Below, piece after piece: positions 4,326 through 53,460 of a DNA stretch of 64,000 nucleotides. Under the pieces are notes generated by a model. The model was not told the origin of the DNA and did not search any database. It was given only the letters and a program-made list of their open reading frames with translations. Position 1 is the stretch's first letter. Each line of letters begins with the position of its first letter. The DNA comes from an uncultured Candidatus Saccharibacteria bacterium. Lineage in GTDB: Bacteria > Patescibacteriota > Minisyncoccia > Phycocordibacterales > SBAW01. The stretch covers positions 637 through 64,636 of the forward strand of contig CAYWJX010000002.1 in assembly GCA_964459335.1 (NCBI GenBank), given 5' to 3'. Position numbers and translations under genes: made by a program.

Positions 4326-4412
4326 GGAGAGGTGCCAGAGCGGTCGAATGGAGCAACCTGCTAAGTTGTTGACCGGGAAACCGGTCCGAGGGTTCGAATC
4401 CCTCCCTCTCCG
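4326..4412 (+). tRNA. tRNA-Ser (anticodon GCU), long variable arm
   Basis: Hand fold: acceptor GGAGAGG/CCTCTCC, anticodon stem-loop GCAAC-CTGCTAA-GTTGT (GCT), variable arm TGACCGGGAAACCGGTCC, T-arm GAGGG-TTCGAAT-CCCTC, discriminator G. No encoded CCA. Confidence 0.9.
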
Positions 4413-4586
4413 CATTTTGAAAATACGCCTTTTAGGGCGTTATTTTCTTATGCGGAGAGGAGTGATGTACTTGAGTACATCACGTGGGGGATTCGAAAAG
4501 GCTCTCCCATATTTTTGAGAAGCTCTGCTTTGAAAAAATGGGAAGCCTGTACTGAAGCTGTAAGCTTCGAATCCCTCCCTCTCCGC
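4410..4586 (+). repeat. left copy of a perfect 177-bp direct repeat (starts in the last 3 nt of tRNA-Ser, ends with a 21-nt copy of the tRNA 3' end)
   Basis: 4410-4586 is identical base-for-base to 9092-9268 (offset 4682). It ends in TTCGAATCCCTCCCTCTCCGC (4566-4586), identical to tRNA-Ser 4393-4413. Confidence 0.9.
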
Positions 4587-4643
4587 CAGATTTCCAACTT
4601 TGAACCGAAGCAAAATAAGGGTTCTTGGGCTAAAATAAAGATT

Positions 4644-5483
4644 ATGTCAAAACCATTAACTAAAAAAGAAGCCGTCGAATATTTAGGTCTTGATGAGAAG
4701 ACTTTTGATAACTATTTTAAAAATGCGTTAGAATTTCCATGTCTCGATAGGAATGGTACCAAAGGACGTTTTTATTTTAACAAAGACGTGCTTCGTAAAT
4801 GGAAAGATGGCTTAGATTGGAGAACTGTTGAGCTAGACAAGGAGGATTATGCCTTGTGCTTAGATTTTGCGCTTGCACAGCATTTCAGAAATTATGTGCA
4901 ATCAGACTTTGGCACTGGACGACAGCGAGAGTTTGGTCAAAAAATTACAAATTGGGTCAAGGGTCAATTGGGAGAAGTCGCTGTTAAAAAATTCTTTAAA
5001 AGGGAATTTGGAATAAAGATTGATCTCGATTTTGATATTCGTGACGAGATCGTTTTACAAGATATAACAGGAGTTGAAGATAAAGGAAAAATGAGAGAAC
5101 CAAAAATTGGTGTTGGTATAAAATCATCCAAGCCAAAAAGCGCATTTTTGGTACTTGGGGAAAATGAAATCAAAATCAAAGAGCGTAGATCAGATATCTA
5201 CATCTACTGTCGTCCCGATATCCCCGATGATCATCTTTTGAGACTTACGAAGGAAGAAGTTAATGAAGCGGTAAAAAACAAACCTCATTATTCAAAATAT
5301 AAGGATTTGATGCCTGATTTTGTAAACATACCATGTGAAATCGCTGGGTGGTGCTATTATTCCGACTTGAAAGAAGTGAAAGAAATCCCCGGACAAGAAT
5401 TTGACGGCGTCAGGTTTGTTAAAGAATCTGGATTACTAAAAAAATCAAAGAAAGATTGGGAGAAACTTATAAGGCAACTGTAG
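4644..5483 (+). CDS. HTH (excisionase/MerR-like HTH_17) fused to a putative PD-(D/E)xK nuclease; candidate restriction endonuclease partner of the adjacent C5-methyltransferase
   Basis: The ORF track start 4515 lies inside the direct repeat; ATG 4644 (MSKPLTKKEAVEYLGLDEKTFDNYF...FYFNKDVLRKW) was chosen. Downstream GQLGEVAVKKF ... DLDFDIRDEIV ... IGVGIKSSKPK resembles a nuclease core. It converges on, and overlaps by 17 nt, the methyltransferase gene. Confidence 0.45.
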   Translation: MSKPLTKKEAVEYLGLDEKTFDNYFKNALEFPCLDRNGTKGRFYFNKDVLRKWKDGLDWRTVELDKEDYALCLDFALAQHFRNYVQSDFGTGRQREFGQKITNWVKGQLGEVAVKKFFKREFGIKIDLDFDIRDEIVLQDITGVEDKGKMREPKIGVGIKSSKPKSAFLVLGENEIKIKERRSDIYIYCRPDIPDDHLLRLTKEEVNEAVKNKPHYSKYKDLMPDFVNIPCEIAGWCYYSDLKEVKEIPGQEFDGVRFVKESGLLKKSKKDWEKLIRQL

Positions 5484-6612
5484 CTTCAACTTTCATATCA
5501 CTAAACAAACTCGCCATCTCTTGTGCGTTTGGTTCTACGTTAGTAAGTTTCGATTCAATAGATTCATAGGGGATTCCCGCAAAAGTTTTTAGTACAGCAG
5601 AAATTATAGCCTGTGCTCCAACTGGAGGCACAGCCATGCCGATTTGTTTTCTGGCACTTTCTTTTGACCCTTCAAAGAAAAAGTCATCAGGAAAAGACTG
5701 CAATCGTGCACGTTCTCTATTTGTCAGAGCACGATTTTCTGACCAATGATAGACATGCGTTCCACCTCCTCCACTTCCGGTGATCGTATAGGAAGGTTTT
5801 TGTGGGTCCAGTCGTTTGTAGATTTGGCTCATTCGAGCACCTTTTACGTTTAACCTTAGGTGTTGAGGTATTCCTTCATACCAGGCATTTTCTCCAGCGG
5901 GTATATGTTTTAATCGTTCTATAACACTTGCAGATTGCTTGGTAAGCTCATGATTTTGTGCGTCATTTGATATTCTCGGATTTTCAATTGCTTCGCGCGC
6001 GCTCACATAATTATTCTTTGTAGTCGGAGCAGGAACTTTGAATCTCAAACCCAAATCTTTCCTTATGCCGATAATGACAATACGATGTCTTTGTTGTGGT
6101 ACTCCGTATTCTTCAAACTTGTATAAGTGTGGCGTGAGAACATAACCTTTTCCTGCCAAACTAAGGTCTTTCAGAATTTGCTTAAAAGCATTTCCGCCAT
6201 TTGCACTCTGTAGGCCACTAACATTTTCTGCAATGAACCATTTCGGATTGTGTATGTTTATTGCTCTCACTCCGTGAGAATAAAGAGGGCCAAATTTTCC
6301 GTCAAAACCTTTCTGTTCACCAACTACACTAAAGTCATTGCAAGGAAACCCAAAAGCAAGCACATCAAACTTCGGAACTTTTTTAAAATCTATATCTTGG
6401 ACAGGAGCGCAAACGACACCCTTCTCGTTTCCATCGTGAATATTGCGAGCGTATGTCTTGCAAGTATCGGCGTCATAATCGTTCGCCCAAACAGGTTCGA
6501 TACCATAAATGGTACTTTCGTTTTCGGCAAAAGATCGGATTGCACCGAGAGCAAGCCCACCGGGGCCGGAGAATAATTCAGCTAATTTAAATTTAATTTC
6601 TTTTTTCTTCAT
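5467..6612 (-). CDS. DNA (cytosine-5)-methyltransferase
   Basis: 381 aa with canonical C5-MTase motifs: I ELFSGPGG, IV GFPCNDFS, VI ENV, VIII QQRHRIVIIG, IX/X ALTNRERARLQSFPDDF and GMAVPP. Confidence 0.92.
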   Translation of the reverse strand: MKKKEIKFKLAELFSGPGGLALGAIRSFAENESTIYGIEPVWANDYDADTCKTYARNIHDGNEKGVVCAPVQDIDFKKVPKFDVLAFGFPCNDFSVVGEQKGFDGKFGPLYSHGVRAINIHNPKWFIAENVSGLQSANGGNAFKQILKDLSLAGKGYVLTPHLYKFEEYGVPQQRHRIVIIGIRKDLGLRFKVPAPTTKNNYVSAREAIENPRISNDAQNHELTKQSASVIERLKHIPAGENAWYEGIPQHLRLNVKGARMSQIYKRLDPQKPSYTITGSGGGGTHVYHWSENRALTNRERARLQSFPDDFFFEGSKESARKQIGMAVPPVGAQAIISAVLKTFAGIPYESIESKLTNVEPNAQEMASLFSDMKVEATVAL

Positions 6613-6638
6613 AAATTCTCAATTTATTTTACCATTTA

Positions 6639-7265
6639 TTAAACTTCTTTCCTAAGTACACCGACGACCCTCCCTTGTATCTCTACGTTTGTCTCATAGA
6701 AGGGCTTCATTTTTTGATTTGCTGGAACCAGCTTAATACGGTTTTTTTCGTGATAAATTCTTTTTAGTGTAACTGCGTCTCTGTCTGGCAAATACGCAAC
6801 AGCTTTTTCGCCATCATCAACTGTCGATTGCTCGCGAACGACAACAATATCGCCGTCAAAAATACCATCTTCAATCATGCTTGTACCTGCAACTTTCAAA
6901 GCGTAGAAATTCGCTCCAGTTGAAATCATATTCCTAGGAACTTCAATCGGTCGAGGATCTCTAATTGCTTCAATAGGGCCACCTGCGGCAATGAGCCCCA
7001 TAAGTGGAATTTCTACGATGCCACTTTTCTGAATATTTAACGCCTGAATAGATCGTCTCTTGCCCTTTTCGGTGGTAAGTAAATTTTTCTGTTGAAGATA
7101 AAATACATGTTGATGAATCGTTGGAACGGACACGCCAAAATTATCTGCGATCTCTCCCAGAGAGGGGGCGTAACCCTTCTTGGGGCGAAATTCGGAAATA
7201 AATTGCAGTATCTCGGCCTGCCGTTTTGACGGCTTACCTATTCCAATGCTTGACTTTCTTTTCAT
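6639..7265 (-). CDS. lexA: LexA-family autocleavable repressor (winged-helix DNA-binding domain + S24 peptidase), island-encoded
   Basis: 208 aa. N-terminal RQAEILQFI...GYAPSLGEIADNFGVSVPTIHQHV, cleavage-site-like IAAGGP (Ala-Gly), catalytic Ser in AGTSM and Lys in VTLKRI. AT-rich like the rest of the island. Confidence 0.85.
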   Translation of the reverse strand: MKRKSSIGIGKPSKRQAEILQFISEFRPKKGYAPSLGEIADNFGVSVPTIHQHVFYLQQKNLLTTEKGKRRSIQALNIQKSGIVEIPLMGLIAAGGPIEAIRDPRPIEVPRNMISTGANFYALKVAGTSMIEDGIFDGDIVVVREQSTVDDGEKAVAYLPDRDAVTLKRIYHEKNRIKLVPANQKMKPFYETNVEIQGRVVGVLRKEV

Positions 7266-7300
7266 ACCTAAAGTATAATACCTTATATAAACCTAATCAA

Positions 7301-7315
7301 GTGGATGTTATCCAC
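7301..7315. promoter_or_regulatory. perfect palindrome GTGGAT-GTT-ATCCAC in the divergent lexA-like / small-ORF intergenic region (candidate operator)
   Basis: Read directly at 7301-7315, inside the 93-bp AT-rich spacer between start codons at 7265 (-) and 7359 (+). Confidence 0.4.
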
Positions 7316-7358
7316 AGGGGTTAAAGGTCGAAATTATAAAAAATTATGTTAAAAAATT

Positions 7359-7562
7359 ATGCCTAAATATATTAGAAATATTGGAAAGCATTGGACACAA
7401 AAAGCAGAAAGGCAACTTTCACAATTTGCCAAGCAAAATACTCCTACTAGAGTGATTGGCCTGAAGCTTGGTCGTCCAGAAAATGGTGTCCGTGCAAAAG
7501 CAAGTGAGCTTGGTATTAGTCTTCGTCCAACGAATCAGTCTCCATACAATCGTAAAAAATAG
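7359..7562 (+). CDS. small basic protein, possible Myb/GcrA-like helix-turn-helix
   Basis: 67 aa. The W..K.E..L....K.....VIGLKLGRPENGVRAKASELGISL pattern resembles the GcrA/SANT-like N-terminal HTH. Divergent from the LexA-like gene. No stronger support. Confidence 0.35.
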   Translation: MPKYIRNIGKHWTQKAERQLSQFAKQNTPTRVIGLKLGRPENGVRAKASELGISLRPTNQSPYNRKK

Positions 7563-7707
7563 GTACTTGGAAAAAGTGACTTAGTCGATAGAGCTTGAGT
7601 GTTTGATACGACAACCAGTATTCAGCTATTCAGAATTGCACACACAATAGCGATCAAAAAGCACACCTTCCCGATTGTTTGATTAAAAATTATTAAAACG
7701 ACTTAAC

Positions 7708-8877
7708 ATGAATAAAGAACAAAAGATTAAATGCCCAAACTGCGGTGAATCAATTTCCATTGATGATGTTTTATCTCACCAAATTGAAGCAAAATACAAA
7801 AAAGAATTCACTGAAAAAGAAGAGCAACTGAAGAAAAATCTCGAAAGTGAAGTGAAGAAAAAAATTACTGAGCAATCAGAGGAATACAAAAAGCAAATAA
7901 AGAATCAAGTTGAAAAAGAAGCGGAAACAGAGAAAAAGTTTTTGAACGAACAGCTTGCAGAAAAAGATCGCAAATTAAAAGAAGCTCAGCAAAACGAAAT
8001 AGAAATTAGAAAAGAGAAGCAAAAACTCAAAGATGAAAAAGATGCATTCGAGCTTGAAAAAACTAGACAACTGGATGAGGAAAGAAAGAAAATTGAAGAA
8101 GAAGCCTCAAAAAAAGCAACTGAAGCAAAACAATCAGAAATTGACCAGCTCAATAAAAAACTTTCAGACGCAACAAAAGCAAAAGATGAACTAGCGAGAA
8201 AACTTGAGCAAGGTTCACAGCAGACACAGGGAGAAGTACAGGAAATAATTCTTGAAGATCTTTTGAAATCAGAGTTTATTCACGATGATATTTCACCCGT
8301 GCCCAAAGGTGTAAACGGAGCTGATGTTATTCAGACAGTAAAAACCAAAGCTGGTATCGAATGTGGAAAGATAATTTGGGAATCAAAGAAAACAAAAGCA
8401 TGGTCAGATGGATGGATTAAGAAATTAAAAGATGATCAGAGATTAGTGAAAGCTGAAATAGCCGTAATTGTTTCTTCTGTGTTGCCAGATGACGTAAAAG
8501 GAATAGCCTTGCGTGATGGCGTATGGGTGTGTGATATAAAATTTGCTACCTCTATTGCAACAGCTTTAAGGAATTCTCTTGAAGCTGTTTCAAGAGAAAA
8601 ATCAATGTCAGTTGGGAAGAATGAAAAAATGGAAATTTTATATTCTTATCTCACAGGAACGGAATTCAGGCAAAGAATGGAAGCTATAGTTGAAACTTTT
8701 TATTCTATGAACACATCACGTAATAAAGAAAAACTTTATTTTGAAAAAAAGTGGGCAGAAGAAGAAAAGCAAATTCAAAAAGTTATAAAAAATACAGTCG
8801 GAATCTATGGTGATCTAAGTGGTATCGTTCATTTGCAGAAAATAGATTTATTAGAACTACCCGAGGGAACAAATTAG
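7708..8877 (+). CDS. DUF2130-family protein (N-terminal Zn-ribbon, long Lys/Glu coiled coil, C-terminal nuclease-like domain; RmuC-like architecture)
   Basis: 389 aa: CPNCGESISIDD, ~170 aa of KE-rich heptads, then GADVIQTVKTKAGIECGKIIWESKKTKAWSDGWIKKLKDDQ...AEIAVIVSSVLP, typical of DUF2130 as I recall it. Confidence 0.6.
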   Translation: MNKEQKIKCPNCGESISIDDVLSHQIEAKYKKEFTEKEEQLKKNLESEVKKKITEQSEEYKKQIKNQVEKEAETEKKFLNEQLAEKDRKLKEAQQNEIEIRKEKQKLKDEKDAFELEKTRQLDEERKKIEEEASKKATEAKQSEIDQLNKKLSDATKAKDELARKLEQGSQQTQGEVQEIILEDLLKSEFIHDDISPVPKGVNGADVIQTVKTKAGIECGKIIWESKKTKAWSDGWIKKLKDDQRLVKAEIAVIVSSVLPDDVKGIALRDGVWVCDIKFATSIATALRNSLEAVSREKSMSVGKNEKMEILYSYLTGTEFRQRMEAIVETFYSMNTSRNKEKLYFEKKWAEEEKQIQKVIKNTVGIYGDLSGIVHLQKIDLLELPEGTN

Positions 8878-8888
8878 GTTTAGGAAGT

Positions 8889-8926
8889 CCCGCTCGAAAT
8901 GATGATAGGTATGCGAGCGGGGTTTT
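8889..8926 (+). terminator. rho-independent terminator after the DUF2130 gene
   Basis: Stem CCCGCTCG (8889-8896) / CGAGCGGG (8914-8921) followed by GTTTT. Confidence 0.6.
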
Positions 8927-9091
8927 ACCTATATCAAATAATCCACTGCATTTTCCCCTTTATCTGACTTCGGTTTTGGTGTTTCGAACCATTCGGGATG
9001 AACTTTGAAGATAGCTCTTAATTCCTGTATACTTTTATCAATATCCTCAAATTTGAGCCACTTTCTGGGTTCAAAGTTGCGGACATCGTGC

Positions 9092-9268
9092 CCGCATTTT
9101 GAAAATACGCCTTTTAGGGCGTTATTTTCTTATGCGGAGAGGAGTGATGTACTTGAGTACATCACGTGGGGGATTCGAAAAGGCTCTCCCATATTTTTGA
9201 GAAGCTCTGCTTTGAAAAAATGGGAAGCCTGTACTGAAGCTGTAAGCTTCGAATCCCTCCCTCTCCGC
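9092..9268 (+). repeat. right copy of the perfect 177-bp direct repeat (attR-like)
   Basis: Identical to 4410-4586. It ends with the tRNA-Ser 3'-end 21-mer at 9248-9268. Confidence 0.9.
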
Positions 9269-9450
9269 ATCGAGTGTTTTTATCGGACTTGTTAGCCTTT
9301 AACAAGAGGCAGCTCAGCGGATTTTCATGTTTGTGATGTACTATTTCGGCGAGCGTGCAGAGGAGGTACTTATCTGTTTAAATGGGTAAGGGCTTGCGCG
9401 TAAGCCCTATAGGGAAACCAGCCAAAGCCTGAAGAAGGCTCCTCGGATGT

Positions 9451-20541: not shown

Positions 20542-21813
20542 TCACACGGCAAGCTGCTTCTCGATTTCCATGAGCCGGTTATATTTGCACACGCGCTCGC
20601 CGCGCATGAGCGAGCCGCTCTTTATAAGCGGACACGCAAGCCCCACCGCAAAGTCGGCAATAAAGGTGTCGGTTGTCTCTCCCGAGCGATGCGAGGCAAA
20701 CGGTTTCCATCCTTGTTTTTTGGTGAGCAGGACAGCTTCGATGGCTTCGGTGACGGTGCCAATTTGATTGGGTTTAATCAAAACCGCGTTAACGGCATTT
20801 TTTTCGATAGCGGTTTGTATCCTTTGTATAGTAGTCACGAGCAAATCATCGCCCACGATTATGGTTGCTTGCGGTGAGCCTGTCGAATCCGTGTCGCCCA
20901 TCGCTTGTGTGAGCGATGTAAATCCATCCCAATCGTCCTCGGCAAGGCCATCTTCAATCAACATGAGCGGATACTGTGCTGCGAGCGATTGATACCATAC
21001 AATAAGCTCGGCGCTCGAAAGTGTTTTTGCTTCGCCGTTTATCTTAAGCGTATATTTTCCGTCATTATAAAAACTCGAGGCCGCGGCATCGATACCAATT
21101 TTTACCTGTTCGGTGTTATAACCCGCAAGCTCAATCGCCGCGACCATTAACTCGAGTGCCTCTTCGTTGGAGTGGAGTTTGGGCGCAAAGCCGCCCTCGT
21201 CGCCAACGCCGGTGGAGTATCCTTTTTGGGTAAGCAAATCATGGAGTGTATGGAGAATCTCCGAGCCGACGCGCACCTTTTCGGCAAAAGTATCAAATGC
21301 AACGGGTGCAAGCATAAACTCTTGTATATCGAGGCCGCTGTCCGCGTGTTTGCCGCCGTTTAAAATGTTAAACATCGGCTGGGGCAGGGCAGGAGCACTG
21401 TTGCCGGCCAAATTCCCCAAGTGCGCGTAGAGAGGCGCGCCTTTTTCCTCGGCGCACGCGCGGGCAAATGCCATTGAGATACCAAGCAAAGCATTGGCTC
21501 CAAGGCGCGACTTGTTGGGCGTGCCATCGAGCCCTCGTAAAAAAGAATCCAGCTCAGCTTGCTCAAATGTTTTGCCAAGCAAAGCGTTGCGCAGCTCGTC
21601 GTTGACGTTGGCCACAGCCTTGTGCACGCCGCGGCCAAAGTAGCGATGCGGGTCATTGTCGCGGAGCTCCAAAGCCTCGTGGCTCCCGGTGCTTTTGCCG
21701 GATGGTACCGAGGCAACAGCCGACACAGTATCGAGGCCGAGCACAACCTCAAGGGTCGGCTCGCCCCGAGAGTCCAAAATTTCCCGAGCCCGAAGTGTGC
21801 GTATAGTTGCCAT
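20542..21813 (-). CDS. eno: enolase
   Basis: 423 aa. REILDSRGEPTLEV, SGKSTGSHEALELRD, LIKPNQIGTVTE, SHRSGETTDTFIADFAVG. Confidence 0.95.
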   Translation of the reverse strand: MATIRTLRAREILDSRGEPTLEVVLGLDTVSAVASVPSGKSTGSHEALELRDNDPHRYFGRGVHKAVANVNDELRNALLGKTFEQAELDSFLRGLDGTPNKSRLGANALLGISMAFARACAEEKGAPLYAHLGNLAGNSAPALPQPMFNILNGGKHADSGLDIQEFMLAPVAFDTFAEKVRVGSEILHTLHDLLTQKGYSTGVGDEGGFAPKLHSNEEALELMVAAIELAGYNTEQVKIGIDAAASSFYNDGKYTLKINGEAKTLSSAELIVWYQSLAAQYPLMLIEDGLAEDDWDGFTSLTQAMGDTDSTGSPQATIIVGDDLLVTTIQRIQTAIEKNAVNAVLIKPNQIGTVTEAIEAVLLTKKQGWKPFASHRSGETTDTFIADFAVGLACPLIKSGSLMRGERVCKYNRLMEIEKQLAV

Positions 21814-21969: not shown

Positions 21970-22626
21970 TTATGTGCTCGCTGGTATTACTTTTTTGATT
22001 GTATCCTTTATGTCTTTTAGCGAAGTATAGATGACCTTATCAGGTTTTTCTTTAATGAGCGCCTGCAATTTTGTAGAGAATCTAGAAACGAGTACTCCGG
22101 CCTGTGTAACTTTTCCTGCATAGGAGACCACCTCGACTCTCTCCACTCCCTTCTCCAACGCTCTGCGTATGAGATACTCAAAATCCCCATCGGCAGTAAA
22201 TATCATTAACTCTACCTCGGGAGCTGATTTTTCGATTGCATCGACGGATAGTTCCACATCACAATTTGATTTTTTGGTATGACCCATATTTACGGTGTGT
22301 ATGTTGTCTTTACCGCACCCAAAACATTTAAGAGCAATTATTTTGTCTTTATTTTTATAGTAATACGTAACCTTGCTTCTCACCGTGCAACAACCCATTT
22401 TGGAAAGAGCTTCAAATTCATTGGCGGTTTCTATGTCGCCTTGGTCAATGCCGGTGTAAAGAAAAATCTCAGTGCAAGACCTCTTATTTTTTAAGTAGTC
22501 GCAGAGTTTGCTCCAGTCAATAACAATCCCGAGTATGTGCTCCGCAGTACTCGCCGTATTGTGGACGTCTATAAAGGCGTATCTCTTCATCGGCTCACAT
22601 TGTACGCGCATAGTCTTTATTTGCAA
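21970..22626 (-). CDS. NYN-domain (LabA/DUF88-like) putative ribonuclease with inserted Cys pair
   Basis: 218 aa. AFIDVHN, KKSNCDVELSVDAI, IFTADGDFEYLI match the NYN pattern; insert CFGCG. TTG start at 22626 preceded by GGAG; ATG 22590 is an alternative. AT-rich relative to neighbours. Confidence 0.6.
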   Translation of the reverse strand: MQIKTMRVQCEPMKRYAFIDVHNTASTAEHILGIVIDWSKLCDYLKNKRSCTEIFLYTGIDQGDIETANEFEALSKMGCCTVRSKVTYYYKNKDKIIALKCFGCGKDNIHTVNMGHTKKSNCDVELSVDAIEKSAPEVELMIFTADGDFEYLIRRALEKGVERVEVVSYAGKVTQAGVLVSRFSTKLQALIKEKPDKVIYTSLKDIKDTIKKVIPAST

Positions 22627-22712
22627 TTAAAACACTCTCCCCAGAGTTACCAACACCCCCCCATGACGCTTGATTTATATAGTATGATTACTGTGTGAAC
22701 AATCCCTTTTTA

Positions 22713-22722
22713 CCCCCCCCCC
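22713..22722 (+). repeat. homopolymeric C10 tract at the 5' end of the tail-fibre-like gene (a C7 tract also at 22656-22662)
   Basis: Counted directly: tacccccccc|cctcg gives C at 22713-22722. Confidence 0.95.
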
Positions 22723-22818
22723 TCGCGCTTCCGCTTTAGCATAGCCGCAGTTCTTCTCGTCCTCTGTCTCACCATTGTCAGCGCGCCGCGTGCCCGCGCT
22801 GCAAGTTTCAGCGACTAC

Positions 22819-25800
22819 GTGGCCACTCCTTTTCAATCAGTGGCCACGGCGTTTGAAACGGTCTTCGCAAAACTCATTGCGCTGGTGGAGCCGCAGCACA
22901 CTATTACTATCAGCCCAGCTCCAGTGACCCCTTGGCATGCGGTAGGGAAGTCACAAGCTGCCGCTGCCTTTAATGCAGCGGCCGTTGCCGATGCGCAAAA
23001 GCCGGTCACTCCTCAGCGAATTGCAAACGCCTCTCCGAAGCCCGCACAATTGGATGTCCATGCTGCGACACTGGGCGGCGTCCTTGGAACGTCCACTACA
23101 GACGGCGTCGTGACGCACGCCGAGCTTGCGGCAGCAATCAATCAAACAACTAACGCGCTGCGCTCGCTGATCTACCAAAATGAAAGTGCACCAAACTCCG
23201 CGATGGGCACAGGCGGCTTCACCAACGAAATTGCGGCGTCGAACAAAATCGATCAGCTGAGCGGCACCACGCTGACCAATGTCATCGTCAACGGCGTCTC
23301 GGGACTTACAACCTCGCAAGTCTCGGAGGGATCAAACCTCTACTTCACCAATGCGCGGGTCGCGGCCTACGTCGAATCTTCGAGCACTATTCCCACCGCC
23401 GCCGGAACGCTTGGCACCGTCCTCTCATGGAACGGGTCATCGTGGACTGCGGTCGCGACATCATCCTTGGGCATTGTTGGAGGCGGCGGAGGAACCTGGG
23501 GCACCATCACGGGCACGCTCTCCAATCAAACTGATCTACAGTCCGCCCTCGATGCGAAACTTTCCCTTACGAACTGGTACGCCACGACGACCGACGCCCT
23601 CCATGAGGGAACCACCAACCTCTACTTCACCAATGCGCGTTTCGATGCGCGCCTTGCAGCGACAACGTCTCTTCCGAACCTTTTGGCGGTCAGCCCGTCG
23701 CTGTTTTGGCAAAATGGCCCCACCTTCAATCTCTCAGTCGGTGCCAATGGACTTAATACGACGGTCTCTCAAGCAGGCGGCGGTCTTAATGGGCAAGGGA
23801 ATACAGCCGTTGGTGTAGGGGCTCTTAATGGCAATACGACTGGCTATCATAATACGGGTCTTGGATATCTGGCTGGCGCAGCTCTCACAACTGGTTACAG
23901 CAACACCGCCTTAGGAGAAGGTGCCTTATGGCAATGCCCCACCTGCTACCAGTCAGTCGCTATTGGCATAGATACTCTGGCGCAGCCGACAAACACCGGT
24001 GCGTTTAATATCGGTATCGGCAACGGGGCTCTCAATGGCAATACGACGGGGAGTTTCAACGTCGCGGTTGGACATAGTGCCCTTGGCTCTAACACCTCCG
24101 CCAATGGTAACGTAGCCGTTGGGTATGTCGCTCTCGGCGTTGATACCACTGGCGACAGCAATGTTGCGACTGGTTTCCAGGCGATGAACGCAAATACGAC
24201 TGGCGGCAGAAACGTCGCAAACGGTTATGGAGCGCTCTACAGCAACACCACCGGAGGCAATAATGTCGCCAACGGTTATGAATCGATGTTTTTCAACACT
24301 ACTGGCGGCGATAATGTCGCCAATGGCTACGCTGCCCTCTACAATAACACTACGGGCAACTATAACACCGCCAACGGCTTCGACTCTCTCTATAACAACA
24401 CCACTGGTTCAGCTAATATCGCCATTGGTAATGGTTCCCTTTACTACAACATGTCTGCCACAACCACTGTTGCTGTGGGCAATGCTGCTGGCCAAGGTAC
24501 CGGTTTGTACTATAACCAAGGAGGAACCTATGTCGGTTATGATGCTGGCCTAAGCGCTGCCACGGCCTCCAACTACAACACTTTTCTCGGTTACCAAACC
24601 GGCTATGACGTCACCACTGGCACCAACAACACCATTATCGGCAGCGAGCAGACGACTAACACCGGCATCACCACTGGAAGCAACAACATCTTAATCGGCC
24701 AGGACCTCCAGCCCAAGAACATCCCCGGCCTTTCGCAGACAGCAAGCAACCAGCTCGACATCGGCAATCTCATTTTTGGTACGGGTCTCTCGTACGGTTC
24801 CACACTCTCGACAGGAAACATTGGGATTGGAACGTCGAGTCCGAGCCAGTTGTTGACTGTCGGGAATAATAACCAGTTTACGGTCACCTCGGCAGGAGCC
24901 CTGAGCGCGGCGGGAGCAACATTCGGTTCTTCGATTGTAGTGAGTGGGAGTGCGACTCCCTCCCCGAACGGAACATACGGGTATGCGGGACAGTATAACG
25001 GTGCACCTTATTACGCGAACGGAACAAGCTGGTACATTTGGTATCGACCCTCCGGTTCCAATTGGTTTCTATCCACTACTCTCGGCGGCTATGCACCTGA
25101 TTGGTATCTTGGTGGAACAGCATCATCGCCGCCGATTAATGTGTCGTGGGCAGCAGACCAATCACCAGCCGCGGGAAGCCCATACCTTTCTGTCGGGTCT
25201 ACTGCCAACGTCTCGATTGGTATTGGCGGTATAACGTGGGCACAAAGCACCGTAACAAATGACTCTATGCCACAAATTATTTTTCCAACCAGAAATGACG
25301 GAACGCAAAATACATATCAAGCTGGAAGCAGTATAGGTCAGACATTTCAGGACTCTAATGGGAAGGCATTAGCGTCAATCTCGTTCAACCGCAATGCAAG
25401 TCCAGGCGGCGGTGGGGCACGATCGTCTTCCGAGATTCGTTTTAACACGACCGGGAGCACGTACGGAGCGGACAACCTCAACTTCTCTACCAAGATGATA
25501 ATTACCGGCGGTGGCAATGTCGGTATCGGAACGCAAGGCGGCACGCTGTCCGCAAAGCTGGTCGTTAACGCCGATAACGGCGACACAAACTCCAACATAT
25601 TTCTCATCGCTTCCTCGACCGCGAGCGCAACGACTACGCTGTTCAACGTTACGAACACGGGTAGCGCCACGCTTGCAGGAACGCTGACTCAAAACTCCGA
25701 TCAACGCCTCAAAACAGACATCCAACCCCTTAATGCTTCGTCATCTCTTACGGCGATCGAGGCGCTCAATCCAGTGTCATACCAGTGGGCCGGCAACATC

Positions 25801-26481
25801 TTCGGCTCAGGCGAACAGGCCGGCTTCATCGCGCAGCAGGTGCAGTCGGTATTTCCAAACCTTGTCTCGACTACGTCGCCCACTGCACTCACGCCCGACG
25901 GCACGCTCGGGCTCAACTACATCGGCCTCATCTCGCCGATCGTCGCGGCGATCCAAGCGCTCGATAAGGAAGTGACGTCGCTCGCGGCGACCGTCGCCGG
26001 CTTCGCGGAGTCGATCTCGACGAACGTGCTCAACGCCGCAACAGGGCACTTCTCGAATCAGCTCTGCGTCGGCAGCACGTGCGTGACGCCTACACAATTC
26101 CAGGCGATGGTCTCCGCCGCCGGACAGTCAAATAGCGGCTCATCAGATTCCGCGCCGTCTTCGGCAGGGGAAGCGACTGACACGCCGCCGGTCATTCAGA
26201 TCAACGGCGACAATCCCGCCGTCATCCAAGTGGGCGCGAGCTACGCTGATCTCGGCGCGACGATCACCGGGCCTGCTGCCGATCTCAACCTCGGGGTCAA
26301 GACGTTCGTCAACGGCCTGTTCGTGAGCAACATTCTGCTCGATACGAGCGCCGCGGCGACCGACACAATCGACTATGTCGTCACCGACGGCCAAGGCCTC
26401 ACGAGCACATCAACGCGCACCGTGATTATAGAAGCGGCGAACGACAACCAGACCTCAAGCGCCACTTCCACTGCTCAATAG
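22819..26481 (+). CDS. large tail-fibre-like surface protein (NTTG-type repeat region, S74 intramolecular-chaperone autoprocessing domain, C-terminal DUF5011/Ig-like domain). The probable true start is GTG 22695, out of frame as sequenced.
   Basis: 1220 aa from GTG 22819. ~270 aa of N(T/A)TG..N.A.G repeats (about nt 23800-24620). SDQRLKTDIQPL...GFIAQQVQSVFPNLV...LNYIGLISPIVAAIQAL (S74 pattern, Ser codon at 25696). C-terminal PPVIQINGDNPAVIQVGASYADLGATI...DYVVTDGQGLTSTSTRTVII. The in-frame upstream codons encode a signal peptide but contain no start codon. Confidence 0.8.
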   Translation: MATPFQSVATAFETVFAKLIALVEPQHTITISPAPVTPWHAVGKSQAAAAFNAAAVADAQKPVTPQRIANASPKPAQLDVHAATLGGVLGTSTTDGVVTHAELAAAINQTTNALRSLIYQNESAPNSAMGTGGFTNEIAASNKIDQLSGTTLTNVIVNGVSGLTTSQVSEGSNLYFTNARVAAYVESSSTIPTAAGTLGTVLSWNGSSWTAVATSSLGIVGGGGGTWGTITGTLSNQTDLQSALDAKLSLTNWYATTTDALHEGTTNLYFTNARFDARLAATTSLPNLLAVSPSLFWQNGPTFNLSVGANGLNTTVSQAGGGLNGQGNTAVGVGALNGNTTGYHNTGLGYLAGAALTTGYSNTALGEGALWQCPTCYQSVAIGIDTLAQPTNTGAFNIGIGNGALNGNTTGSFNVAVGHSALGSNTSANGNVAVGYVALGVDTTGDSNVATGFQAMNANTTGGRNVANGYGALYSNTTGGNNVANGYESMFFNTTGGDNVANGYAALYNNTTGNYNTANGFDSLYNNTTGSANIAIGNGSLYYNMSATTTVAVGNAAGQGTGLYYNQGGTYVGYDAGLSAATASNYNTFLGYQTGYDVTTGTNNTIIGSEQTTNTGITTGSNNILIGQDLQPKNIPGLSQTASNQLDIGNLIFGTGLSYGSTLSTGNIGIGTSSPSQLLTVGNNNQFTVTSAGALSAAGATFGSSIVVSGSATPSPNGTYGYAGQYNGAPYYANGTSWYIWYRPSGSNWFLSTTLGGYAPDWYLGGTASSPPINVSWAADQSPAAGSPYLSVGSTANVSIGIGGITWAQSTVTNDSMPQIIFPTRNDGTQNTYQAGSSIGQTFQDSNGKALASISFNRNASPGGGGARSSSEIRFNTTGSTYGADNLNFSTKMIITGGGNVGIGTQGGTLSAKLVVNADNGDTNSNIFLIASSTASATTTLFNVTNTGSATLAGTLTQNSDQRLKTDIQPLNASSSLTAIEALNPVSYQWAGNIFGSGEQAGFIAQQVQSVFPNLVSTTSPTALTPDGTLGLNYIGLISPIVAAIQALDKEVTSLAATVAGFAESISTNVLNAATGHFSNQLCVGSTCVTPTQFQAMVSAAGQSNSGSSDSAPSSAGEATDTPPVIQINGDNPAVIQVGASYADLGATITGPAADLNLGVKTFVNGLFVSNILLDTSAAATDTIDYVVTDGQGLTSTSTRTVIIEAANDNQTSSATSTAQ

Positions 26482-43726: not shown

Positions 43727-43744
43727 TGTACATATAGATGTACA
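43727..43744. promoter_or_regulatory. two TGTACA hexamers 12 bp apart (GATGTACA-TATA-GATGTACA), YefM/Phd-type operator candidate overlapping a TATAGAT -10
   Basis: TGTACA at 43727-43732 and 43739-43744, immediately upstream of the antitoxin start. The E. coli yefM-yoeB operator is built on TGTACA cores. Confidence 0.5.
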
Positions 43745-43752
43745 ATAGAGGT

Positions 43753-44013
43753 ATGACTACTGCCGCTTTCCAAAAAGTGCAAAAAAGCGTTGATGTCAGC
43801 GACTTTAGGGCTGCCATGGCTTCACATTTGGCTAAAGCAAAAAACAAGCCGCTGGTTGTCTCGGCCCGTCGGGGGGGGGACTCCTTTGTAGTGCTCTCGG
43901 TAGATACATACAACAAGCTCGTGGAAACTTGGGAAAATGAACAAGACTCCAAGGAGCTTGCCCGCCTTGTCAAATTGCAAAAGGGCAAAAAATGGGTAGA
44001 GTTGAAGCGCTAA
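43753..44013 (+). CDS. Phd/YefM-family type II antitoxin
   Basis: Start at ATG 43753 (the first ATG, 43738, lies within the operator). DVSDFRAAMASHLAKAKNKPLVVSARRGGDSFVVLSVDTYNKLVE is a typical Phd/YefM N-domain. Confidence 0.8.
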   Translation: MTTAAFQKVQKSVDVSDFRAAMASHLAKAKNKPLVVSARRGGDSFVVLSVDTYNKLVETWENEQDSKELARLVKLQKGKKWVELKR

Positions 44014-44022
44014 ACGCGCTTT

Positions 44023-44277
44023 ATGTATCGAATATTTCTCAACCCAAGATCCCAAAAAGAACTCAACAGTCTGCCCAAAGACGTCGCTCACACAATTAAG
44101 GCTGTTCTTTTGGGTGCTTTAAAGAGGAACCCTTTTTCTTGTCCTCATGTTAAAAAACTCCAGCCTCCTCTCGAAGGGTATCGTCTGCGAGTGGGAGACT
44201 ACCGCATACTGTTTCAAGTAGAAGGACCGTCTGTTTTGATATACTCAATCAAGCATCGCAAAGACGCATATAGATAG
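44023..44277 (+). CDS. RelE/ParE-family type II toxin
   Basis: 84 aa. Ends ...GYRLRVGDYRILFQVEGPSVLIYSIKHRKDAY, the characteristic RelE/ParE pattern. Lies 9 nt after the antitoxin. Confidence 0.85.
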   Translation: MYRIFLNPRSQKELNSLPKDVAHTIKAVLLGALKRNPFSCPHVKKLQPPLEGYRLRVGDYRILFQVEGPSVLIYSIKHRKDAYR

Positions 44278-45924: not shown

Positions 45925-45930
45925 CGTGAT

Positions 45931-47808
45931 ATGAATCTGCTTCAATTGCTCAGCGACAGCGGCGTTGTCGATGCGAAGGCTGTGCCGGAGATAGAGGGTG
46001 AGCTTGCAAAACCGGGCACTGATTTGGAAACCGTGCTCCAAAAAAACGGCGTCACGCTTCCGCAGATACTCAAAGCAAAAGGCGACTACTACAGCATCCC
46101 CACGCGCGAGCTGGGAGGCAAACCGGTTTCGTTTGACACCCTGCGCTTTGTGCCCGAGGAGAGCGCGCGGCATTATCGCTTTGCGCCGCTTGGCGTTGTC
46201 GACGGTGCACTCGAGGTGGGTATTACCGACCCCGACAACATGGAGGCGCGCGACGCGCTCACCTTTATATCGGCAAAGGTGGGCATGCCATACAAAATAT
46301 TTTTGATAACCGAGACCGATTTTGCAAAACTGCTTTTGCAATATAAAGGCCTCTCCGGCGAAGTGGGCAAGGCGCTCGGTGAGTATGAGACTGGCGAGGT
46401 GGTAGAGAAAAAAACAGAAGGGAAGACAGGCGCGCGCCTCGTTGGCCTGGAAGAAAACGAGGTCACCGAGACCGAGACCTCGGCAATTACCGAAGACGCG
46501 CCGGTCACTAAAATCGTGGCCACCATTTTGCGTCATGCCTCCGAGCAGCGCGCCTCCGATATCCACATTGAGCCTTTGGTCGACCAAACGCGCGTACGCT
46601 TCCGCATCGACGGCGTCTTGATTACCAACATTACGTTGCCCTCCAAAGTACACGGCGCCGTGGTGGCACGCATCAAAGTGCTCTCCAACATGCGCCTCGA
46701 CGAAAAGCGCAAGCCGCAAGACGGGCGCTTTAGCGCGCGCGTCGGCGGCAACAAAGTCGACTTTCGCGTCTCGACCTTCCCGACCTACTACGGCGAGAAG
46801 GTAGTGATGCGTATTTTAGGCAGCGCCACAATTGAGCTCAAGCTCGAATCCTTTGGTCTCTCGGCGCGCAATCTTGAGATGATACGCACCGCGATAAAAA
46901 AACCGTACGGTATGATACTTATCTCCGGCCCTACAGGCTCCGGTAAATCAACTACGCTCTACTCGATACTCAACGAGGTCGATAGGGAAAAACAAAACGT
47001 ACTTTCGCTCGAGGACCCGGTCGAGTACACCATCCCGGGTGTCTCGCAAAGCCAAGTGCGTCCCGAAATCGGCTACACCTTTGCCAACGGCTTGCGCACC
47101 ACGCTCCGCCAAGACCCCAACGTCATCATGGTGGGTGAGATCCGCGACGCCGAAACCGCCAATCTGGCGGTGCAAGCGGCGCTCACCGGCCACCTCGTGC
47201 TCTCCACCATCCACACCAACAACGCAATAGGCATCGTGCCGCGCCTCCTCGACATGGGCGTCGAGCCGTACCTTATCCCGCCTGTGTTGATACTTGGCAT
47301 GGCTCAACGCTTGGTGCGCACGCTGTGCCCGGGCGGTGGCAAAAAAATGAAGGTAGATGAGAGCATGGCGCTCATGTTTAAAGACCAATTTGCCGACTTG
47401 CCGCCCGAGTACAAAGGAGAAGTGCCGCCGCTCGATGAAGTGTATCTTAGGGATCCTTCGCCCGATTGCCCGGCTGGAACGCGCGGCCGCATCGCCGTGT
47501 TTGAGATGTTCGATATGAATCTTGAGCTCGAACACGCGATACTCGCCGGCAAACCGGAGGACGATATGTTTGCAATCGTGCGCAAACACGGCATGCTCGC
47601 CATGAAAGAGGATGCTATTATTAAAGCGGCAAAGGGCGTTATACCGTTTGAGGAGGTCAACACGCTCGGCGGCCAGTTTGAGTTGCCCGAGGAGGAAGCC
47701 GATTACAGCGCATCAAAAGCGCCGGAGGTACTCGGTGAGGATGTCAAAGAGGAGGACACCAAAGAGGAGGTCATCGCCAAAACCAGCGCTCAGGAGATAC
47801 AAGCTTAA
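45931..47808 (+). CDS. pilB: type IV pilus assembly ATPase (PilB/GspE family)
   Basis: 625 aa. N-terminal T2SSE_N-like domain, Walker A GPTGSGKSTT, Asp/His boxes, tetra-Cys-like region, acidic C-terminal tail. Confidence 0.9.
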   Translation: MNLLQLLSDSGVVDAKAVPEIEGELAKPGTDLETVLQKNGVTLPQILKAKGDYYSIPTRELGGKPVSFDTLRFVPEESARHYRFAPLGVVDGALEVGITDPDNMEARDALTFISAKVGMPYKIFLITETDFAKLLLQYKGLSGEVGKALGEYETGEVVEKKTEGKTGARLVGLEENEVTETETSAITEDAPVTKIVATILRHASEQRASDIHIEPLVDQTRVRFRIDGVLITNITLPSKVHGAVVARIKVLSNMRLDEKRKPQDGRFSARVGGNKVDFRVSTFPTYYGEKVVMRILGSATIELKLESFGLSARNLEMIRTAIKKPYGMILISGPTGSGKSTTLYSILNEVDREKQNVLSLEDPVEYTIPGVSQSQVRPEIGYTFANGLRTTLRQDPNVIMVGEIRDAETANLAVQAALTGHLVLSTIHTNNAIGIVPRLLDMGVEPYLIPPVLILGMAQRLVRTLCPGGGKKMKVDESMALMFKDQFADLPPEYKGEVPPLDEVYLRDPSPDCPAGTRGRIAVFEMFDMNLELEHAILAGKPEDDMFAIVRKHGMLAMKEDAIIKAAKGVIPFEEVNTLGGQFELPEEEADYSASKAPEVLGEDVKEEDTKEEVIAKTSAQEIQA

Positions 47809-47814
47809 ACACTC

Positions 47815-48879
47815 ATGCCAAACTACAAACAAAAACTGCAACAACTTATCGAGGCGCTCATCACGCAGGGCGGCTCCGACTTGCACCTTTCCTCCGGTAT
47901 ACAACCGATGATGCGCGTGTCGGGCGTCCTCACTCCCATGTTAAGCGAGGCCGTACTCACAAGCGCCGATATGCTCGGGCTCATTACCGAACTCTTGCCT
48001 CCGGAGCGCAAAGACCTTTTCCTTAAAACGCAGGAGGCCGACTTTTCGTTTGCCTATGGCGATAAAGTACGCTTCCGCGGCAATGCCTACTTTGAGCGCG
48101 GCTCGATAGGCGTGGCGCTCCGCCTCATACCGCGCACCATCCGCAACGTAGCCGAGCTCCATTTGCCTGCCGTACTCGAGACATTTGCCGAGCGCCAACA
48201 GGGATTTTTTTTGGTGGTGGGGCCGGTGGGGCAGGGTAAGACCACCACACTCGCCGCGCTGATAGAAAAAATAAATCAGGAACGTAGCGAGCACATCATT
48301 ACTATCGAAGACCCAATCGAGTATCTGTTTGAAAATAAAAAGTCGCTGGTGGAGCAGCGCGAGGTGCGCGTTGATACCGCCGACTTCCCGCAGGCACTGC
48401 AGTCGGTGTTCCGCCAGGACGTCGACGTGCTTATGATAGGCGAGATGCGCACGCCGGAGACCATCTCGACCGCCGTGACCGCTTCCGAAACAGGACACCT
48501 CGTGTTCTCAACTCTCCATACCAACAACGCCGCACAAACAGTCGACCGCATCATCGACTCCTTCCCGGCGACGCAGCAGGAGCAGATACGCGTCCAGCTT
48601 GCGGGCTCGCTTGCGGGCATCTTTAGCCAGCGCCTCGTGCCGCGCATTGCAGGCGGCCTTATCCCGGCGTATGAGCTCTTGCTCAACAACAGCGCGATTG
48701 CAAACCTCATTCGCGAAAAGCGCACGCACGAGATACAAACCGTCATCGAAACCGGTAGCGCCGATGGCATGATAGACATGAACCGTTGTCTTGCCGACCT
48801 TGTGCGCCAGGGCGAGATAACCATCGAGAGCGCCTATGCGAGAAGCTGGAACCCCAAGAGCCTTGAGCGCTTGATGTAA
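47815..48879 (+). CDS. pilT: twitching-motility retraction ATPase PilT
   Basis: 354 aa. GGSDLHLSSG, Walker A GPVGQGKTTT, TIEDPIEY, GHLVFSTLHTNNA. Confidence 0.9.
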   Translation: MPNYKQKLQQLIEALITQGGSDLHLSSGIQPMMRVSGVLTPMLSEAVLTSADMLGLITELLPPERKDLFLKTQEADFSFAYGDKVRFRGNAYFERGSIGVALRLIPRTIRNVAELHLPAVLETFAERQQGFFLVVGPVGQGKTTTLAALIEKINQERSEHIITIEDPIEYLFENKKSLVEQREVRVDTADFPQALQSVFRQDVDVLMIGEMRTPETISTAVTASETGHLVFSTLHTNNAAQTVDRIIDSFPATQQEQIRVQLAGSLAGIFSQRLVPRIAGGLIPAYELLLNNSAIANLIREKRTHEIQTVIETGSADGMIDMNRCLADLVRQGEITIESAYARSWNPKSLERLM

Positions 48880-48894
48880 CAATATTTATTACTT

Positions 48895-50106
48895 ATGGAA
48901 TTTACGTACGAAGGACTCGACAGTCAGGGCAAGCCGCAAGGCGGCATTGTAAACGCCGCGTCGCAGGATGTGGCCATACAAAGCCTCCAGCGCAACGGCG
49001 TTACCATTACGGCAATTAAGGCAACGGGGCAAAAGGGAGGCCTCGGCTCTCTGCATATTCCGTTCTTGAGCGGCGTACGGAGCCGCGACCTCGTGATCCT
49101 CTCGCGCCAAATCGCGACGCTCTTTGAGGCACAAGTATCGGCCTTGCGCGTGTTCCGCTTGCTTGCCGAGCAGGCCGAAAAGCCGGCTTTGCGCCAAGCC
49201 TTAACCGAAATAAGCGACGACCTCCAGGGAGGCACCAGCATATCCAAAGCGCTCGACAAGCATCCCAAAATATTTTCCGACTTTTACGTCAACATGGTGC
49301 GCGCCGGTGAGGAGTCGGGCAAGCTCGACCAGACATTTCTCTTTTTGGCCGACTATATCGACCGCAATTATGCGCTTACCTCAAAGGCGAGGAACGCGCT
49401 TGTATATCCGGGCTTTATTTTCTGCACGTTTATCGGCGTGATGGTGCTCATGCTCACGGTCATTATCCCCAATATAGGTTCCATTTTGACCGACTCCGGC
49501 GGGACGCTCCCGCTTGAAACACAAATCGTACTCGGACTCTCGGCATTTTTGGTTGATTACGGCATATTTTTGCTTATTGCGCTCATTATCGGGGGGTACT
49601 TTGTCATGCGATACTTTAAAACCCCCAAAGGTAAGCTCGCCTTGGGCCAGCTCAAACTCTCGGTCCCATACATCGGCGATTTGTATAAAAAGCTCTATTT
49701 AACGCGTATTTCCGATAACATGCATATCATGCTCTCCTCCGGTATATCGGCGGTGCGCTCGCTCGAGATAACCGCCGCGGTGGTGGACAACGAGATTTAC
49801 GAGCGTATCCTCACCGAGGCTGTTGAGGGGGTCAAGGCCGGCAGTTCGATGTCTCAAACCTTTGCCAAATATCCCAAGGAAATCCCCACTATTTTGGTGC
49901 AAATGCTCCAAATTGGCGAGGAAACGGGCGAAATGGGCAGTGTGTTGGAGCGCCTCTCCAAGTTTTATGAGCGGGAGGTTAACGCGGCCGTTGACACGCT
50001 TGTTGCTCTTATCGAGCCGGCGCTTATCATCGCTCTGGCTGTTGGCGTGGGCTTTTTGCTCGCTTCCGTGCTCCTGCCTATCTACAACACCACCGCCAAT
50101 ATGTAA
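48895..50106 (+). CDS. pilC: type IV pilus platform protein PilC (GspF family)
   Basis: 403 aa. Two GspF repeats and three TM segments. Confidence 0.88.
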   Translation: MEFTYEGLDSQGKPQGGIVNAASQDVAIQSLQRNGVTITAIKATGQKGGLGSLHIPFLSGVRSRDLVILSRQIATLFEAQVSALRVFRLLAEQAEKPALRQALTEISDDLQGGTSISKALDKHPKIFSDFYVNMVRAGEESGKLDQTFLFLADYIDRNYALTSKARNALVYPGFIFCTFIGVMVLMLTVIIPNIGSILTDSGGTLPLETQIVLGLSAFLVDYGIFLLIALIIGGYFVMRYFKTPKGKLALGQLKLSVPYIGDLYKKLYLTRISDNMHIMLSSGISAVRSLEITAAVVDNEIYERILTEAVEGVKAGSSMSQTFAKYPKEIPTILVQMLQIGEETGEMGSVLERLSKFYEREVNAAVDTLVALIEPALIIALAVGVGFLLASVLLPIYNTTANM

Positions 50107-50114
50107 TAAATCTT

Positions 50115-50152
50115 CCCCGACGCTTCGGTCGGGGCCCGACCAAGGCGTCGGG
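50115..50152 (+). terminator. tandem GC-rich hairpins after pilC (terminator/attenuator or processing site upstream of the pilin genes)
   Basis: CCCCGAC-GCTTCG-GTCGGGG (50115-50134) immediately followed by CCCGAC-CAAGGC-GTCGGG (50135-50152). The arms are mutually interchangeable. Confidence 0.45.
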
Positions 50153-50261
50153 CTTATCCACATGCCCCCCTCTTGCATAGTGCAAAAGGCCAGTATACTT
50201 GAGGGGCAGGAGACTAAAAGTCGTTTTATTTATTAATTATTTAGTAACCTACAGATTAGAT

Positions 50262-50777: not shown

Positions 50778-50804
50778 TCTCTATCTCCAGTCTTGAGTTT
50801 AAGA

Positions 50805-50836
50805 AATCCCCAACCTTGCGGCTGGGGATTTTCTTT
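50805..50836 (+). terminator. rho-independent terminator after pilin 1
   Basis: AATCCCCA (50805-50812) / TGGGGATT (50823-50830) followed by TTCTTT. Confidence 0.6.
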
Positions 50837-50968
50837 GGGGGTATACTACCTTTAGTGACTCACTATACGATACAAATCTCCGATAGAGGGGGCCGGGGTC
50901 ACAATACATCGGGATAAGAATTCCGGCGGACGCTCTCTTGTTTGATACTGGAACTATGTGTATGTACT

Positions 50969-51460: not shown

Positions 51461-51477
51461 TAGGATATTATTACGAT

Positions 51478-52014: not shown

Positions 52015-52020
52015 CTACGC

Positions 52021-53458: not shown

Positions 53459-53460
53459 CT

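Follow-up and report, generated by a model that had tools for sequence, protein, structure and literature searches.

A poly-C tract between a putative leaderless-type start codon and the predicted signal peptide of a tail-fibre-like surface protein gene: a candidate contingency locus in Patescibacteria

Introduction

How does a 3.78-kb reading frame for a phage-fibre-like surface protein come to lie out of frame with its presumed start codon, cut off from it by a run of ten cytosines, and what could such a run do there? The gene in question lies in the 64-kb stretch of DNA analysed here (the window; all coordinates are window positions), which is assigned to the Minisyncoccia (Patescibacteria/Candidate Phyla Radiation, CPR) by the NCBI name of the representative of its 90%-identity NrdD cluster. 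Bacteria of this group are thought to live attached to host cells; nearly all of them are uncultivated, and the control of their attachment is almost unknown. Homopolymers in surface-protein genes are familiar from other bacteria: the Neisseria gene pilC, which encodes a pilus-associated adhesin, carries poly-G within the part that codes for its signal peptide, and phase-variable tracts of G8-13 are found in Campylobacter. An original prediction, made from the letters of the window, had proposed that the C10 run may switch a host-attachment fibre ON and OFF by slipped-strand mispairing. The anatomy of the locus, the variation in tract length and the recurrence of the layout in a second contig speak for this proposal, whereas none of four sequences carries an ON length; a slipped-strand simple-sequence-repeat contingency locus is, in our judgement, moderately probable. 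If it is one, a large phage-fibre-like surface protein would be under a stochastic on/off switch, which bears on bet-hedging in attachment or in escape from phage or host.

A C10 run separates a presumed start codon from a predicted signal peptide and the fibre frame

The fibre frame is closed on its 5' side by a TGA at 22696-22698 and open from 22699 to 26481, reading ...PPPSRFRFSIAAVLLVLCLTIVSAPRARA followed by ASFSDYV. The orphaned signal peptide in it is continuous with a 1226-codon fibre open reading frame (ORF) and one base out of frame with GTG 22695; the first canonical start codon within the fibre frame is GTG 22819, no other preceding it, as had been claimed. The tract would begin six codons 3' of the presumed start, GTG 22695. 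Edited in silico to C9, it yields an uninterrupted protein of 1261 amino acids (aa) and, edited to C12, one of 1262 aa, both starting (M)NNPFLPPP(P)SRFRF, whereas C8, C10 and C11 lead to termination after 14-16 codons. Within C8-C12, only C9 and C12 thus join GTG 22695 to the fibre ORF, so that a change of one C decides the frame. The original prediction had foreseen this fusion, and the coordinates that it gave for a C7 tract, TATGAT, GTG 22695, the TGA, C10 and the stop at 22737-22739 are all borne out by the sequence: as sequenced, the gene is severed from its start codon and its export signal.

C10 is the longest homopolymer of the window. A C/G 10-mer is expected 0.10 times per 64 kb and was present in 8 of 100 dinucleotide shuffles; by itself the run is mildly improbable, and it is notable through its position. 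With its C8 and C11 copies described below, it falls in the range in which G/C runs are unstable (at least about 8 nucleotides, nt). In the window ORFs, CCC makes up 27% of the Pro codons, and CCC-CCC is used at 0 of 43 Pro-Pro dicodons.

A deviant genetic code was considered and ruled out. Under TGA recoding (code 4 or 25), the fibre ORF could be read from ATG 22663, which is in frame with it but for TGA 22696. The code is standard, however: many long ORFs, enolase among them, end in TGA, and TGA 22696 is therefore a real stop. The C8 and C11 alleles would also be off that frame, and the TGA is merely the +1 reading of the GTGA start. As a separate observation, short ATG frames of 11 and 13 codons occur in the window (22663-22698) and in the G-tract contig L019 described below (1158-1200). 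Both are in the fibre frame at a 10-nt tract and stop at a TGA overlapping the GTG start (GTGA), a shared layout that starts of the GTGA type would probably produce by coincidence. Translation from a near-cognate codon of the fibre frame (ATC 22702, ATA 22741 or ATT 22774) or reinitiation after the short ORF may also be envisaged, and neither found support.

The upstream GTG has the features of a leaderless-type start

The TATGAT box lies 6 nt upstream of GTG 22695, and this layout is kept in a diverged relative (L006, below). The claim that such spacing is common at other gene starts of the window agrees with the counts: of 133 long ORFs, 17 have a TAnnnT box ending 6-8 nt 5' of their first ATG, a placement found for 4.1% of all ATGs (binomial P = 3.6e-5), with spacer-6 boxes at the gene starts 26612, 51478, 55184, 58166 and 61468. 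Many gene starts of the window, those of first-in-operon genes and 22590(-) included, have their TAnnnT box 6-8 nt upstream without a Shine-Dalgarno sequence. Collectively, these patterns suggest that leaderless mRNAs are widespread in this Minisyncoccia genome. GTG 22695 shares this local architecture, from which we infer both its use as a start and the position of the transcription start.

A competing view is that the protein begins downstream, at GTG 22819 or at 22840, and that the upstream stretch is a relic. Indeed, all three public calls of the fibre gene start at 22840, giving 1213 aa. However, neither a -10 box nor a Shine-Dalgarno sequence was found 5' of 22819 or 22840, and the 26 codons upstream are conserved in a coding manner in the fibre frame (below). 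Orthologs and most family members carry a signal peptide; since most subfamily members start with one, a product from 22819 that lacks it would be atypical, and a surface fibre with S74 and immunoglobulin (Ig)-like domains but no export signal makes little biological sense. A downstream start is, in our view, highly improbable.

Public gene calls also fall short elsewhere in the family. One member (P0039; ENA WOOD18-1 scaffold_8140; k141_827824; L020/L021, about 1447-1500) was tried as a tract-bearing case and rejected: it has no tract, and its public call is merely 18 codons too late. In it, GATAAT, 6 nt and a GTG lead into an in-frame predicted signal peptide, VKSSVLSAIAATILSLFG, in the manner of a leaderless-type start.

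The tract is the one variable homopolymer among near-identical assemblies

Two other assemblies, of essentially the same strain, cover the locus, and both differ from the window in tract length. The JGI contig Ga0455670_0000107 matches the window over 32,619 nt with a single difference, a tract of C11, and the ENA MEGAHIT contig k141_1155015 matches it over 44,308 nt with three single-nucleotide polymorphisms (SNPs) and C11 as the sole indel. The Logan contigs of SRR6946416 show no difference over 11.5 kb, the tract lying outside their coverage. None of the other homopolymers of at least 7 nt in the compared regions differs, G9 and A8/T8 runs included, which argues against general homopolymer noise. 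The in-frame G9 of an antitoxin gene serves as the control (Table 1), the surrounding 6255 nt being 100% identical in the JGI contig. The tract is the most mutable or most heterogeneous site of the region.

A more distant comparison is provided by L006 (JGI contig Ga0182030_10130652), which is syntenic via the upstream NYN gene and diverged at synonymous sites (dS about 0.76). Here TATTAT, the same 6-nt spacing, a GTG and an identical AACAATCCCTTTTTA are followed by C8, so that the comparison with related sequences yields C10 versus C11 in near-identical assemblies and C8 in the other lineage. Conservation between the window and L006 extends over the promoter, the GTG and the 18 nt leading up to the C run, which is itself uninterrupted in both lineages. 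In L006 a T>C change abolishes the overlapping GTG 22693 and spares the equivalent of 22695. Its C8 frame is open back to a TTG 5' of the -10 box, whereas the window lineage closes that frame by the TGA inside TATGAT. The C7 tract, which had been pointed out as a second run, lies at 22656-22662, at -39 to -33 from GTG 22695 and thus within the promoter region; its length is identical in the window, ENA, JGI and L006 sequences, and it gives no sign of switching.

Could the true tract be C9 or C12 in all cells and simply mis-called? G/C homopolymers of at least 10 nt are the hardest for Illumina chemistry and for k-mer assemblers, and the three assemblies disagree precisely at the tract. Yet the assemblies give 10, 11 and 11 and the other lineage 8, never 9 or 12, and no other homopolymer differs in 32-44 kb. 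A consensus error would require most reads to be wrong, and the MEGAHIT k141 and JGI pipelines both give C11. The G10 tract of L019 is likewise not a multiple of three (3n). We regard a sequencing or assembly artefact as quite improbable, including the uniform C9 consensus error that had been named as the alternative to phase variation.

The orphaned signal peptide and the fibre ORF are under purifying selection

By inspection, the orphaned segment has the layout of a signal peptide, with an n-region SRFRFS containing two Arg residues, a core IAAVLLVLCLTIV and a c-region SAPRARA before AS, and this n-/h-/c-region layout is kept in L006 and in the tract-less ortholog P0002. The predicted cleaved N-terminal peptide of the fibre is ASFSDYVATPFQ....

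The original prediction took this stretch for a textbook signal peptide, and the substitution pattern shows it to be real coding sequence. Between the window and L006, the differences in the 26 signal-peptide codons fall 2/1/6 on the three codon positions. In the fibre frame the ratio of nonsynonymous to synonymous differences (pN/pS) amounts to 0.24-0.42, as against about 0.9-2.5 for the two remaining frames, a pattern that is the same in all three pairwise comparisons, the tract-less ortholog included. In the fibre ORF, the ratio of nonsynonymous to synonymous substitution rates (omega) is 0.23 against L006 over the 178 codons compared. These ratios indicate that purifying selection acts on the signal-peptide codons, and does so in the fibre frame alone. 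Since the bias is confined to the fibre frame although the window and L006 both lack an in-frame start, the orphaned signal peptide appears to be maintained as coding sequence. The pattern is what would be expected of a switched ORF that is kept functional in spite of OFF alleles.

Orthologs without the tract show what the intact gene may look like. P0002, P0127 and P0128 share the N-terminal module almost exactly with the window fibre and begin ATG GAT TTT CCA CCG CGA TTT (MDFPPRF...), with no homopolymer and with the homologous signal peptide in frame with the ATG. MDFPPRF aligns with MNNPFLPPPSRF of the C9 reading, which supports GTG 22695 plus a 3n tract as the functional frame.

These data also bear on non-adaptive decay, according to which a mutable tract has recently knocked out the fibre gene, now drifting towards a pseudogene. 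In its favour, only OFF alleles were observed, and a broken family copy exists (P0035, with a frameshift outside any repeat). However, the 3.78-kb frame of 1260 codons is free of stops, and an omega of 0.23 is maintained across a dS of about 0.76 although both lineages have out-of-frame tracts, so that the inactivation cannot predate the split between the window and L006. Moreover, conservation of the locus covers promoter, GTG and the 18 nt preceding the C run, the tract is uninterrupted in both lineages although CCC-CCC is otherwise avoided, and the same layout is found independently in L019. We consider decay unlikely.

A second family member has a G tract at the same junction

The gene calls of some family members are without a signal peptide. 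One of these, P0009, a GDSL+S74+Ig protein, is encoded on contig Ga0480578_0003311 (L019; JGI 3300051094), which stems from a different metagenome and also carries ribosomal protein genes. At 1146-1210 of L019, a GTG, an A and G10 precede a basic and hydrophobic N-terminus, VRSKRYSVRRGFVNPLAGIVAAILSLFGFGG..., which is one base out of frame. This orphaned signal or transmembrane segment is open for 97 codons into the called P0009 gene, and G9 or G12 would fuse the two. A further G9 abuts a TACAAT -10-like box, 37 nt 5' of the GTG. The window fibre and P0009 have unrelated N-termini and differ in the base of the tract, C in the former and G in the latter, which argues that the design arose twice. 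More broadly, homopolymer tracts at the junction of start and signal peptide of S74 fibres may be a recurrent bet-hedging device in Patescibacteria, mostly OFF, with the poly-C and poly-G cases as its first members; we put this forward tentatively, as a possibility of somewhat less than even chance.

Wider searches added no further case. No match was found in a DNA pattern scan or in a protein-based scan of species-representative genomes, nor in a pattern scan of IMG/VR. In an alignment scan of IMG/VR for S74+Ig proteins, all hits were genuine phage S74 domains with at most 40% identity; they were set aside as candidates and used as homopolymer background: across 882 kb of phage S74 loci, no G/C run reaches 9 nt. 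The broken copy P0035 (L102; Logan SRR23702543_328229, about 470-535) was rejected as a third case, its 1-nt frameshift lying mid-gene in non-repetitive DNA (GGT GTA GGA CT...) on a contig that starts inside the gene; the split is due to an error in the Logan assembly, or else the gene is a genuine pseudogene.

A slipped-strand switch is weighed against recoding

In the proposed switch, the fibre gene would be transcribed from the -10 box into a leaderless or near-leaderless mRNA with the 5' GTG 22695 as its start. Replication slippage would lengthen or shorten the tract by one C, far more often than point mutations arise. At 3n lengths (C9, C12) the GTG would be in frame and an exported S74-type surface fibre would be made; at other lengths translation would stop after 14-16 codons, leaving no fibre or traces of it. 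Fibre-ON and fibre-OFF cells would then coexist in the population, and OFF alleles would dominate the peat populations that were sampled. Slippage as the cause of the length differences, the existence of ON cells and an adaptive role in host attachment or in phage or host escape are all projected here from sequence.

Several observations weigh against the slipped-strand switch. No canonical -35 element was found before TATGAT. The tract lengths are those of assembled sequences; the ENA and JGI assemblies possibly stem from one set of reads, leaving fewer independent observations, and Illumina or PCR stutter at a G/C run of 10-11 nt could add to the disagreement between assemblies. All four lengths seen (8, 10, 11, 11) are OFF, so that ON and OFF alleles were not found side by side in this very small sample; the probability of an all-OFF outcome by chance is about 0.3 for three independent alleles and is not decisive. 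A 3n length is likewise absent from the 90% protein cluster of the gene, which holds only the three truncated 1213-aa calls, and exact look-ups for the four predicted ON proteins, in a collection of about 15 billion sequences, gave no match. The L019 example comes from a single contig, represented in one assembly.

That every observed allele lies out of frame while purifying selection acts on the signal peptide and the ORF is what recoding would lead one to expect, non-3n alleles being still expressed. Under this reading, a ribosome that has initiated at GTG 22695 would change frame on the C run, or RNA polymerase would stutter on it, giving a low and steady supply of fibre. The shift required would be +1 at C10 and -1 or +2 at C8 and C11; CCC-C is a classic +1 shift-prone site, and re-pairing of tRNA-Pro on it, together with a poly-proline stall, would help. 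Programmed sites, however, keep a fixed slippery sequence, length and direction, whereas tracts of 8, 10 and 11 nt need opposing shifts. RNA-polymerase slippage is documented mainly on A/T runs, not on C runs, and the G run of L019 codes for Gly, so that the tRNA-Pro argument fails there. No stimulatory structure was found either, no search aimed at one having been made. Recoding therefore seems to us distinctly unlikely.

The slipped-strand mechanism itself is textbook. Like pilC and other contingency loci of Neisseria, Campylobacter, Helicobacter and Haemophilus, the fibre gene has a G/C run of 8-12 nt in the first codons of a surface-protein gene, where ±1 nt would act as a switch, and the tract length differs between otherwise near-identical genomes. 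Unlike those loci, it belongs to peat Patescibacteria/CPR and not to an animal pathogen, has a leaderless-type GTG, and shows OFF lengths throughout the sequences compared. A search of a literature collection for phase variation in Patescibacteria/CPR found no homopolymer ON/OFF switch. The nearest CPR case is the hypervariable PTD-repeat gene of a Gracilibacterium, which contains an in-frame 9-mer repeat (Sieber et al. 2019, PMC6851277). Both are hypervariable, repeat-driven CPR genes of surface type at whose repeats assemblies break or disagree; the Gracilibacterium repeat, however, alters protein sequence and length (PMC6851277), whereas the window tract would shift the frame.

The protein itself invites comparison with the phage S16 long tail fibre 6f45 and the K1F endosialidase, with which it shares a C-terminal S74 chaperone, an SDxRLK motif and matches to PHROG tail families. 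Unlike these phage fibres, it is chromosomally encoded and has a predicted Sec signal peptide and an extra Ig-like domain after S74. A different parallel lies in the frameshifted poly(A) genes of the insect endosymbionts Buchnera and Blochmannia, whose rescue by transcriptional slippage has been shown experimentally. There, as here, the genome is reduced and a homopolymer throws an otherwise conserved gene out of frame in the DNA; the endosymbiont tracts are poly(A), whereas the window tract is poly-C (poly-G in L019).

The locus also has a practical side. The three public calls of the fibre gene and the call of P0009 start downstream and lose the export signal. Surveys of CPR surface proteomes would misclassify such genes as cytoplasmic, and tract-aware annotation would recover them.

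The fibre gene product and its genomic context

The features of the locus are collected in Table 1. The fibre repeats match PHROG tail spike and virion-structural families; an NCBIfam search found no family for the protein. The SDQRLK motif of the S74 domain aligns with SDRRIK and SDERLK of the tail fibres 6f45 and 8jov, and its S, D, R and K are invariant in an alignment of 15 subfamily members. The gene is flanked by housekeeping genes (NYN, enolase, phosphoenolpyruvate synthase, NrdD and NrdG-like), and no phage or prophage setting was found; the neighbours argue that the product is a cellular surface protein of phage-fibre type and no phage tail fibre. It is presumably trimeric and a probable host-attachment fibre; a fibrous or beta-helical shaft ahead of the chaperone would fit its sequence repeats and the PHROG tail spike and virion-structural matches.

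Table 1. Coordinates of the fibre locus and of the control tract in the window
Feature	Position	Strand	Basis or remarks
Divergent NYN-domain gene	21970..22590	-	promoter TTGCAA-16-TACAAT (22626-22599) in the shared 104-nt intergenic region
-10-like box TATGAT	22683..22688	+	sequence; ends 6 nt 5' of GTG 22695
GTG, putative leaderless start codon of the fibre gene	22695..22697	+	kept in L006; aligns with the ATG of the tract-less ortholog
Short ORF read from the GTG at C10, MNNPFLPPPLALPL then stop	22695..22739	+	14 codons; ends at TAG 22737-22739
Poly-C tract, candidate variable element, C10 in the window	22713..22722	+	9/12 = ON; 8/10/11 = OFF
Orphaned signal-peptide coding segment SRFRFSIAAVLLVLCLTIVSAPRARA, predicted cleavage after ARA	22723..22800	+	translation, codon conservation, homology
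Mature tail-fibre-like ORF	22801..26481	+	stop TAG 26479-26481; PHROG tail spike and tail fiber matches
Peptidase_S74 intramolecular-chaperone domain with SDQRLK autoproteolysis motif	25696..25866	+	Pfam PF13884, 64.1 bits (cut-off 22)
Bacterial surface Ig-like domain, C-terminal	26194..26430	+	Pfam PF16403, 35.1 bits (cut-off 27)
Control tract G9, in frame in PhdYefM-type antitoxin gene	43871..43879	+	invariant

Some further observations concern the surroundings. The enolase gene (20542-21813, minus strand) is called as 423 aa on the ENA contig and as 400 aa on the JGI contig; the DNA is identical, and the difference is one of gene calling only. In the region 4326-9270, a perfect direct repeat of 177 nt (4410-4586 and 9092-9268) begins in the 3' end of a tRNA-Ser(GCT) gene and flanks about 4.7 kb that encode a DNA methylase, a LexA/S24-type repressor, a DUF2130 protein and a 322-aa ORF. 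Such an organization resembles that of a small element integrated at a tRNA gene. Of the three ENA SNPs, two (9169 and 9184) fall within the right-hand repeat. The control G9 tract belongs to a pair of a PhdYefM-type antitoxin and a ParE/RelE-type toxin (43738-44277), in which it codes for RRGG. A type IV pilus-like cluster at 45925-54655 shares the contig with the fibre gene; it comprises two T2SSE/PilB-PilT ATPases, a T2SSF platform protein, several N_methyl prepilins and a prepilin peptidase.

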